Source: a virus
Lineage: Duplodnaviria > Heunggongvirae > Uroviricota > Caudoviricetes
Direction: 5' to 3' (one strand)
Length of the DNA stretch: 64,000 nt
IMG/VR virus record: IMGVR_UViG_2684623127_000007
Part shown: one piece after another, positions 57,901 through 60,900 of the stretch
Layout of the letters: each line of letters begins with the position of its first letter
Position numbering within the stretch: position 1 is the stretch's first letter
Position numbers: made by a program

Positions 57901-60900
57901 GAGCGGTAACTAAGCGGTATGCGCCTTTACTTCAGAAAGTCTCTGGTGAGTGCACCGAAGATATTGTCAACGATTTCGTCATCGAACTGCGAGGACTCAT
58001 CTTCAGTTACAAGGTGACCACAATTTTTGCAGATGGCTCCCGCGAAACTGTCAGAGCCCTGCGGCTTAAAGGATGTGTCAAAGACTTAGCCACCACATTC
58101 TGGGCAAGAAAACTTGATTGTATTCATAACCAATTTCCTCTCGAGTAACAGACCCCTCAGAGGATACCACCTCGCCTGACGTGGTTAAAAAGCAGGCAAC
58201 GCTAACCACAAGGAGCCGACATGCAGAAACGAGACCCCGTCATCATCGCGCCAGACTATACCGATGATGAACTTTATGAGTGGATGCACCAGAAAATTAA
58301 GGCGGTGCAGGACCTGAAATGGGCCAATGAAGCCAGGGCTAAGCAGGCTGAAAATCTGTCCGCTCTGGAGCAGGATATCACCAATCTGGAAAAAGCAGCG
58401 GCATTAAGCATTGCCAGAATGATTACATACCCACGTTAATAGCTAACCAACGAGGCTAATAATGGAATTTAAAGATTTACCAACGCCATTACAGGAAATG
58501 GCATCGAATATAGTTCGTTCACAACTGGCTACTCTTGACCTTAGTACCGCAGAAAAAGAAACCATCGATAATATGGTTCGTAATGTGCGCAATGCTTTTT
58601 CTGGGCTATATGGTTCTGATAATCAAAAGCAGGAAAGCGATGTTAATAAACGGGTAATTTCTGTTTGCGTGAATGGCCATGTTCTTTCATCAATCAAAAC
58701 AGAAACGGCGACAGTCTTCGATTGCCTTTGCATTGTACAGAGCCTTGTTGATGCCCTGTTTCGTTCAGTGAATTTAGAAAATGATGCAAATCTGCGAGGG
58801 CGCATAATAGCACATCCATATGCACATACTTTAGGCTCTGTGGATATCAAAGATCCCACAAATCTTTAATGAAATAGTTAACGCGAATTGTACTTGCTCT
58901 TTCGGTTGCTTTCAGAATACGCGTTGAAACTGCTGGCGGTAATTTGGTATTCCATTTATTAAAATCATGCCCGGGAAAGTACTCTTCGAAAATACTTTTA
59001 ACTGCAGACTCGCCTATTGAAATGCTGCTTACCATGCGATTTTGATAAAGGCATTTAGCAATAAGAGTTGATTTTAACATTCACCCTCCTGAGGGTTGGT
59101 AATTAAGGAGTTCTCCACGGGTGAAGTGGAGTGCGTGCGCCGGACACGGGTGAACATCCGGCACTGACAGTTTACTGAAAGGATATTTCTCTGAAAAGTC
59201 AGAGCATAACGCGAAAGCGCACGGCGAGGTTGCTGGTTCATAGATAGCCTGTCGTTAAATTTTCGTCGACCGTGCGCTTCCGGTTGTGGCACTCCGCGAA
59301 ATGGCGCAGCGGTAAGTATGGCGGGGTTATTCCTTCCCCGTTGAGGACACCGGGTTGTCAGGTTGACCATACGCTTAAGTGACAACCCCGCTGCAACGCC
59401 CTCTGTTATCAATTTTCTGGTGACGTTTGGCGGCATCTGTTTGCCCATGAACTGATGTCCGCCCTTTTTAAAGTGAATTTTGTGATGCAGTGAATGCGGC
59501 TAAGCGCACGCGGAACAGTTAAAGCTAAAAACAGTGTTATGGGTGGATTCTCTGTATCCGGCGTTAATTGTTAACTGGTTAACGTCACCTGGAGGCACCA
59601 GGCACCGCATCACAAAATTCATTGTTGAGGACGCGATAATGGAAACGTTATTACCAAACGTTAATACGTCTGAAGGTTGTTTTGAAATTGGTGTCACTAT
59701 CAGTAACCCTGTATTTACTGAAGATGCCATTAACAAGAGAAAACACGAACGGGAGTTATTAAATAAAATATGCATTCTTTCAATGCTGGCCCGTTTACGT
59801 CCGATACAAAAAGGATGCTGGCAATGAATACAGCATTTGCACTTGTTCTGACAGTTTTTCTTGTTTCCGGAGAGCCAGTTGATATTGCAGTCAGTGTTCA
59901 CAGGACAATGCAGGAGTGTGTGACTGCAGCAACCGAACAGAAAATTCCCGGTAACTGTTACCCTGTCGATAAAGTTATTCACCATGATAATAACGAAATC
60001 CCGGCAGGTCTTTAAAACAGTTCCGTAATAAACATCCGATTTCATTCTTATATGCCAGCAATGGCAGGGATTTGTTCACCCTTAAATCTGTAATGAGGTA
60101 AAACAAAATGAGTAAAGTCTTTATTTGCGCCGCCATTCCGGACGAACAGGCAATAAAGGAAGAAGGTGCAGTCGCTGTAGCCACTGCCATTGAAGCCGGT
60201 GATGAACGTCGCGCCCGCGCAAAATTTCACTGGCAATTCCTGGAGCATTATCCGGCTGCTCAGGACTGCGCTTATAAATTTCTTGTTTGCGAGGATAAAC
60301 CCGGTATACCCCGCCCTGCCCTCGATTCCTGGGATGCTGAATATATGCAGGAAAACCGCTGGGATGAGGGGGCTGCTTCCTTTGTCCCGGTTGAGACTGA
60401 ATCCGATCCGATGAACGTCGCTTTTGACAAGCTGGCCCCTGAAGTACAGAACGCTGTCATGGTTAAGTTCGACACATGTGAAAACATCACCGTTGATATG
60501 GTGATTAGCGCGCAGGAATTGTTGCAGGAAGACATGGCAACATTCGACGGACATATCGTTGAAGCGTTGATGAAAATGCCAGAAGTTAACGCCATGTATC
60601 CGGAGCTTAAGCTGCATGCCATCGGGTGGGTTAAGCATAAATGTAAGCCTGGTGCCAAATGGCCCGAAATTCAGGCAGAAATGCGCATCTGGAAAAAACG
60701 TCGCGAAGGTGAACGCAAGGAAACCGGAAAATACACGTCTGTTGTTGATCTCGCCCGCGCCAGAGTCCACCGACAGCACACTGAAAACTCAGCAGAAAAA
60801 ATCCCCCCTGTCACTGCAGTCATTCGTCGCGAATATAAGCAGACATGGAAAACACTGGATGACGAACTGGCCTACGCTCTCTGGCCTGGTGATGTGGATG

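Follow-up and report, generated by a model that had tools for sequence, protein, structure and literature searches.

Introduction

The morons sieB and rexAB of lambdoid phages lie in the early-left or immunity region, and in pore-forming colicin operons the immunity gene is convergent with the SOS-induced toxin gene. Here we describe two small convergent open reading frames (ORFs), ORF-A and ORF-B, in a 64,000-nt stretch of a Caudoviricetes genome (IMG/VR record IMGVR_UViG_2684623127_000007; the whole stretch is called the window hereafter), where they form a prophage accessory module beside the immunity region.

Among described systems, type II toxin-antitoxin (TA) pairs such as PaaA2-ParE resemble this module in that two small proteins are co-inherited, one compact and the other with a conserved, poorly ordered C-terminus, that the putative antidote occurs as an orphan whereas its partner does not, and that palindromes are found at the promoter. 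Unlike TA genes, ORF-A and ORF-B are convergent with overlapping 3' ends and form no operon, so that they are not co-transcribed, and there is no likeness in fold or sequence. BstA is a large single protein whose immunity element, aba, is DNA within the gene (PMC8585504). Similar to BstA/aba, the pair is an accessory locus beside a lambdoid immunity region, and a factor made by the lysogen is proposed to block the phage's own lytic cycle unless neutralised; however, the two systems share no homology, and a second protein is proposed here in place of a DNA element. Colicin operons likewise combine an induction-controlled gene with a small opposite-strand gene that has its own promoter and lies immediately downstream, but the proteins of the pair are cytoplasmic and soluble rather than membrane immunity proteins, they are phage-borne, and the orphan pattern suggests the opposite polarity.

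The site that holds the pair can be compared to the P2 and P4 hotspots, which are variable cargo sites of temperate phages (PMC9122126). As in such phage hotspots, whose cargo is often independently transcribed, the site is fixed, its flanks are conserved and its alternative, unrelated cargo has a low guanine-cytosine (GC) content. It differs in that the cargo genes encode only 60-150 aa, share a leader and ribosome-binding site (RBS), overlap a mosaic plus-strand gene at its 3' end and match no known defence family. Any likeness of the ORF-A/ORF-B pair to TA or defence systems would lie in its logic only.

A conserved convergent gene pair of Enterobacterales phages

ORF-A (58462..58869, + strand) and ORF-B (58847..59080, - strand) encode proteins of 135 and 77 aa, respectively, and both start with ATG. 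They are annotated as a pair of hypothetical proteins, WP_000394552.1 and WP_000920491.1, by the RefSeq Prokaryotic Genome Annotation Pipeline in E. coli O157:H7. The genes overlap at their 3' ends by 23 nt (58847..58869, both strands; TCAAAGATCCCACAAATCTTTAA), a segment that comprises the final seven codons and the stop of each gene. A preliminary description of the locus, made from the sequence alone, had reported both ORFs and their overlap correctly, but its strong RBS on each gene applied to ORF-B only (AGGAGG, 4 nt 5' of the ATG), as the site of ORF-A is of moderate strength (GAGG, 6 nt 5' of the ATG). We consider both ORFs to be real genes and not chance reading frames because homologues with 27-72% identity, and with length and frame kept, were found in several genera.

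The same description had proposed looking for the pair as a conserved unit in other prophages, and the outcome was strongly positive in both directions. All of the ~18 distinct phage loci outside E. coli that carried an intact ORF-B also had a convergent partner gene, whose last ~75 residues aligned to residues ~63-135 of ORF-A; this conserved partner of ORF-B is referred to as the A-core (58642..58869, + strand; ORF-A residues ~61-135). The reverse test was independent of ORF-B, as it started from a profile of A-core sequences from outside E. coli, with B-like genes then called by hmmsearch (E values 1e-12 to 1e-46). It retrieved 71 IMG/VR loci, and a B-like gene overlapped the 3' end of A convergently in 67 of them (94%). 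These loci show that temperate, lambdoid-type phages of Enterobacterales carry ORF-B and the A-core as a conserved unit of two genes.

The overlap measured 23 nt in subfamily-1 pairs, or 26 nt where B was one codon longer, and 33 or 51 nt in a divergent B subfamily 2 (MKRSDVL...FIRDLWDAY). The position of the pair was also constant: it lay at the start of the early-left operon beside the immunity region, with A co-directional to the operon and B antisense. A was found downstream of a cI-like repressor gene, and in one locus (L081) just 3' of a TTGACA-16-TATTCT promoter. The flanking genes varied, with RdgC, YfdP, DUF2303 or DicB downstream and an S24-type or DicA-type repressor upstream. In other genera, neither DicF nor any other Rfam family was detected near the pair at gathering thresholds, and blastn gave short chance matches only. 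Only one of 72,556 plasmid records held the pair, and the characterised phages that carried it were limited to PPompW records, composite records of PPompW and a Stx2a-converting phage, and phage Evi. We also considered whether the 23-nt overlap arose as a by-product of a recent insertion that truncated a 201-aa ancestor of ORF-A. This was rejected because the overlap is ancestral and kept across genera, the 201-aa form being a derived allele.

ORF-A is a composite protein and ORF-B a compact one

Homologues of ORF-A fell into two groups. The first consisted of many E. coli and Salmonella proteins of 106-212 aa in total that had only residues 1 to ~55 in common and then continued into unrelated C-termini, and the second, full-length relatives of ORF-A, was rare. 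The N-terminal domain (58462..58641, + strand; residues 1-60, MEFKDLP...) was common to all alleles of the E. coli slot described below, and in a PHROG search residues 1-63 matched phrog_6937, phrog_2151 and phrog_9419; by tblastn it was present in none of 93 loci outside E. coli. On this pattern, ORF-A is a composite protein, of which the N-terminal ~60 residues are E. coli-specific and the C-terminal ~75 alone belong to the conserved pair. The alignments indicate that ORF-A has acquired an E. coli-specific N-terminal domain in the E. coli prophage. In other genera, the A-core stood alone as a protein of 77-95 aa or carried different N-terminal extensions.

The A-core of ORF-A shared 27-40% identity with the B partners of other genera, with the motifs VNG, T..A...D(Y) and LE.(E/D)AN..G(K/R)T..H and with T80, A83, D87, L105, E106, A109, G113 and H118 as invariant residues. 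ORF-A also belongs to phrog_1363, a function-unassigned family. A phmmer search with the A-core against 1.84 billion representatives gave five real matches; two further proteins that matched in several stretches (P0156 and P0159) were discarded as low-complexity repeats. Structure prediction was another check proposed at the outset. The AlphaFold2 model of ORF-A reached a mean predicted local distance difference test (pLDDT) score of 47, too poor for a fold search, and showed two helices at the N-terminus, followed by a beta-hairpin (64-80) and a long helix (85-105), with the tail that holds the most conserved motif (106-135) modelled at pLDDT <50. The A-core protein of a Yersinia-type locus (157 aa; L085 5212-5685, - strand) had a C4 zinc finger of the ClpX type at its N-terminus (PF06689, 34.1 bits), and this domain assignment hints at a role in protein-protein contacts or proteolysis.

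ORF-B belongs to phrog_10348, also a function-unassigned family, and 77-aa homologues with 55-72% identity were found in Klebsiella, Dickeya, Xenorhabdus, Photorhabdus, Morganella, Proteus, Yersinia, Serratia and Salmonella. It was modelled with confidence as five helices (pLDDT 96.8), for which a fold search of the PDB gave no structural relative. The two proteins have grand average of hydropathicity values of -0.13 and -0.17.

As the preliminary description had noted, neither protein has a recognisable domain. Searches of Pfam, NCBIfam and PADLOC and sequence profile searches of the PDB returned nothing for ORF-A or ORF-B, nor did these resources reveal homology to any toxin or antitoxin superfamily. 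In its architecture, the pair departs from a type II TA operon, as the two strands carry one gene each and the genes run towards each other with an overlap of 23 nt, and from a type I system with its hydrophobic peptide and antisense RNA, as both partners are conserved soluble proteins. In the searched literature library, no paper describes these genes or mentions the two accessions or the PHROG identifiers, and the papers on PPompW, dicBF and ydfC do not characterise these genes.

Asymmetric losses and the proposed polarity of the pair

The A-core was found without B in several lineages, namely in the E. coli 201-aa allele and in loci L180, L181/L216, L185/L186 and L233. Homology of the 201-aa allele to the window ended directly after 'GSVD', beyond which a different, 63-aa convergent gene followed, and the 208-aa A-core protein of L180 was accompanied by an unrelated 73-aa convergent gene. 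In two further loci (L012 and L093), A was intact and B was frameshifted or truncated. No phage locus with B but without the A-core was present among those examined. This asymmetry would be expected if A were the antidote.

Based on this asymmetry, on the orientation of the genes and on the contrast between a folded B and a poorly ordered A, we propose, with a probability of roughly 40%, that B is an effector whose expression does not depend on the early operon, and that A is an early-expressed partner that neutralises it. The two proteins would act on each other: B, the compact five-helix protein, would be expressed from its own promoter, potentially in the lysogen, and A only when the early operon fires. 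A would then bind B through its conserved, poorly ordered C-terminal tail, and the resulting neutralisation would protect the phage's own lytic development, amounting to self-immunity. The gene orientation, the conserved promoter-like element of B outside E. coli and the orphan asymmetry would be compatible with such a BstA-like logic. Segments that fold on binding are commonly modelled at low confidence.

The coupling and orientation of the genes would equally fit the reverse polarity, as in the operons of pore-forming colicins, with A as a host-harming effector of the lytic phase, similar to Kil, DicB and DicF of the same operon, and B as a constitutive antidote that guards lysogens from a leaky early operon. 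The dicBF operon is known to hold many toxic products (PMC5069750). However, the orphan pattern runs the opposite way: the A-core occurs without B in at least five lineages, B decays while A stays intact, and no phage locus examined had B in the absence of A. The 201-aa allele, moreover, retains the A-core and replaces B by an unrelated 63-aa gene. We regard an effector role for A as improbable.

Transcription of the pair and conserved cis-elements

A ~75-nt element 5' of B was conserved across genera (GCCTG..TTTTCACCAC..CAGGC..GGTGGTATCTT; in fuller form GCCTG..TTTTCACCAC..CAGGC..GGTGGTATC(T/C)T). Within it, TG-N-TA-NNN-T was invariant in ~45 distinct sequences from outside E. coli, 38-43 nt 5' of the ATG. 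Such a pattern, together with a -35 resembling TTCACC, is typical of extended -10 promoters, and the element can be called promoter-like. It was seen in the 100 nt 5' of B in L184, L189, L197 and other loci. Upstream types of B were exemplified by TGGTATCTT in Serratia/Yersinia and TGGAGAACT in O157. In the window, the leader of ORF-B (59081..59162, - strand) contains the Shine-Dalgarno sequence AGGAGG (59085-59090) and the inverted repeats CTCCAC/GTGGAG (59113-59131) and GCCGGA/TCCGGC (59139-59162).

Two interleaved inverted repeats overlapped the conserved element, and in an alignment of 12 sequences 85% of the cells were paired compared to 29-54% in slid controls, with three pairs being compensatory. 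This gives modest support to an operator or an RNA structure.

Since the 3' ends overlap, no terminator lies between ORF-A and ORF-B, and the sole terminator-like site 3' of B on the B strand is weak and lies past the start of ORF-A (58416-58399). Without room for a terminator, the transcripts of A and B must be mutually antisense, with the early operon reading through B and B transcription through A. Such convergent transcription would make the expression of A and B mutually antagonistic and, under the proposed roles of B as effector and A as neutralising partner, would reinforce their mutually exclusive expression.

The same arrangement would also suit a regulatory switch, in which B, as a regulator, or its long antisense transcript would damp the early-left operon in the lysogen and A would counter it on induction, with interference between face-to-face promoters. 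The genes converge with no intervening terminator, the interleaved repeats over the B promoter element look like an operator, and the module adjoins the immunity region; analogues of such transcriptional interference are the pR/pL promoters of coliphage 186 and ant/sar of P22. We rate a switch of this kind as distinctly unlikely.

A polymorphic slot between ydfC and dicF

The order given in the preliminary description for Qin, the K-12 prophage, was correct: MG1655 reads dicA-ydfA-ydfB-ydfC-(341 nt)-dicF-dicB, with a gene-free ydfC-dicF interval, and in the alignment both ORF-A and ORF-B are extra relative to it. The cassette limits were taken from a three-way alignment of the window, K-12 Qin and the 201-aa-allele locus. 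The cassette (58460..59093) is 634 bp long, spans both genes and both RBSs exactly, and is absent from K-12 Qin. It is AT-rich, as had been noticed, with a GC content of 0.397 for ORF-A, 0.363 for ORF-B and 0.391 for the block as a whole, compared to 0.46 in the immediate flanks and 0.487 in the remainder of the 54-64 kb region. Of 5426 complete genomes of E. coli, 645 (~12%) carried the cassette at ≥80% coverage, and with its absence from MG1655 it is no routine part of Qin-like operons. The idea of an extra insertion in the operon holds in this respect, but the insertion is no one-off event: the cassette is one allele of a polymorphic slot between ydfC and the dicF leader.

Loci retrieved via the shared N-terminal domain revealed at least seven combinations of a plus-strand gene and a small minus-strand gene in the slot between ydfC or ydfA and dicF. 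Variants were seen in E. coli dicBF-type prophages at L003, L095, L096, L098, L111, L118 and L124. Besides the 135-aa/77-aa pair with its 23-nt overlap, the plus and minus products measured 201 and 63 aa (overlap 23 nt), 133 and ~92 aa (41 nt), 106/109 and ~91 aa (23/32 nt), 124/126 and 73 aa (11 nt), and 122 and ~100 aa. Genes for 208/212 and 69 aa abutted without overlap, and a 124-aa plus gene had either no partner or a 148-aa hydrophobic protein encoded 78 nt downstream, again without overlap. The 148-aa protein possibly has two transmembrane segments. The small slot proteins (several of 60-100 aa) were mutually unrelated, and none matched Pfam or PADLOC; with PADLOC-DB v2, the other slot alleles gave noise only (E ≥0.006).

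Most minus-strand cargo genes start from one leader and RBS (...CTCCAC..GTGGAGAACTCCTTAATTACCAACCCTCAGGAGGGTGAAATG), which sits in the conserved region 5' of dicF and is kept in K-12 although the slot is empty there. With conserved flanks, alternative unrelated genes and K-12 Qin as an empty site, the slot acts as a hotspot for cargo genes, in which the leader for their expression is already in place. In the window, the cargo (GC 0.39 versus 0.49 in the surroundings) carries B on the strand opposite to the operon.

The promiscuity of the slot bears on whether A and B interact at all. They could be independent small morons in a slot open to any cargo on the minus strand, travelling together only because their overlapping 3' ends offer no site for recombination; at least seven combinations exist, the 124-aa plus gene may have different partners or none, and neither protein has a known domain. 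On the other hand, adjacency and overlap are kept in two divergent subfamilies, in several bacterial families and in mosaic surroundings, with 94% reciprocal co-occurrence, while recombination inside the 3' end of A does happen and the losses are asymmetric. We consider independent co-travel unlikely. Strict co-variation of plus and minus genes in all slot alleles, as for polymorphic toxins, was rejected because the 124-aa plus gene is seen alone as well as with several partners. This loose coupling tempers any view of all alleles as interacting pairs, but given the cross-genus conservation in the sequence comparisons, the caveat does not extend to the A-core/B pair.

One E. coli prophage with the 201-aa allele (L004 2694-3172) carried a PaaA2-ParE pair between the repressor gene and ydfA, that is, at a second variable position of the same operon.

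Points against the proposed roles and wider meaning

Several observations weigh against B as an independently made effector neutralised by A. PADLOC-DB v2 gave zero families for A, B, ydfC and the upstream 99-aa gene orf99. The isoelectric point of B is 9.5 in the window and 4.7-6.1 elsewhere, which led us to reject a conserved acidic/basic complementarity between A and B. A Psychrosphaera metagenome-assembled genome (L013 4989-5228) encodes a lone B-like protein (43% identity) on the chromosome between a chemotaxis-receptor and a glycoside-hydrolase gene, with neither the A-core nor phage genes nearby, so that the B fold has no intrinsic need of A. In the slot, the 124-aa plus gene is found with no partner or with three different ones. 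The low-confidence model of A may stem from a shallow alignment alone, and as shared 3' ends are hard to split by recombination, linkage could inflate the co-occurrence; the breakpoint of the 201-aa allele inside A indicates that this linkage is breakable.

The O157 copy itself adds to these points. Its leader is homologous to the conserved element (matching bases GTGGAGAACT), but in this E. coli version the TTCACCCGTG loop is duplicated and the -10 is degenerate and effectively lost. A consensus scan 5' of B in the window found no 9-of-12 sigma-70 match, and a weaker TTTTCA-17-TAAACT, noted by eye, lies ~40 nt further 5'; with the -10 lost, expression of B here is uncertain. In addition, codon 115 of ORF-A (58804-58806) encodes Ile, whereas at least 90% of A-core homologues have Thr (GRIIAH versus GRTIAH/GKTIxH). 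Taken with the degenerate -10, this suggests that the copy in O157 may be poorly expressed or in decay.

A broader proposal, which we regard as doubtful, is that B founds a new family of small prophage effectors, for example in superinfection exclusion or abortive infection, with a five-helix fold not seen before, with the A-core as its dedicated, early-expressed antidote and as a counter-defence when alone, and with the ydfC-dicF slot as a reservoir of further pairs expressed from one leader. If B is indeed an effector that A neutralises, the two would represent an unrecognised class of tiny convergent protein pairs encoded in the early region of temperate phages. About one in eight sequenced genomes of E. 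coli, most O157:H7 among them, contain it, and it extends across Enterobacterales. Such a class would provide a new effector fold and antidote family for phage-phage conflict, and the slot would be a place to look for more such pairs. Even without an interaction between A and B, the locus offers three features overlooked by current annotation, namely a precise polymorphic slot with a shared expression leader 5' of DicF, a conserved promoter-like element and two protein families.

Neighbouring genes and minor observations

The window matches chromosomes of E. coli O157:H7 with 100% identity and corresponds to PPompW, a lambdoid prophage integrated at ompW. The local gene order starts with a cro-like gene (- strand), followed by a DicA-like helix-turn-helix repressor (57178-57585), orf99 (57849..58148, + strand; a 99-aa hypothetical protein, phrog_21318), ydfC (58221..58439, + strand; 22 nt 5' of ORF-A), the cassette and a variant gene for the small RNA DicF (59415..59464, + strand), which adjoins the cassette downstream and belongs to the same early operon. 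After DicF come dicB, a DUF1482/ydfD gene, an 823-aa exonuclease gene, xis and int.

Homologues of ydfC were found near the pair in 9 of 93 loci, and in one 193-aa protein (L092 5212-5793, - strand) the A-core is fused to a domain that resembles YdfC (35% identity over 62 aa, E 1e-9). Members of the orf99 family were found at the A-core where B is missing, either fused or directly 3' (L185 2453-3004, 57% identity over 95 aa; L186, 45%). Together with the consecutive order of orf99, ydfC and ORF-A in the window, these fusions suggest a loosely linked set of early-left small proteins.

The DicF gene matched Rfam RF00039 with 43.5 bits (E 2.4e-7), which is under the Rfam gathering score of 48. 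Its 3' half differs from that of K-12 DicF (GGCGGCATCTGTTTGCCCATGAACTGATGTCCGCCC versus GGCGGTATCAGTTTTACTCCGTGACTGCTCTGCCGCCC), so that the target range of the DicF in the window may differ. A sub-threshold match to the small RNA STnc100 (32.5 bits; gathering score 47) lies across the dicF-dicB spacer (59453-59658, + strand). A 124-aa minus-strand ORF (59074-59448) is probably spurious, as it crosses the GC-rich conserved dicF leader, a sequence that K-12 has too; in other alleles it is continuous in frame with the respective cargo gene, so that ORF calls there are inflated. Further upstream, a 183-aa ORF of a YdaT-family gene (56339-56890, - strand) is open in the window, where RefSeq calls a frameshift in the identical EC4115 sequence.

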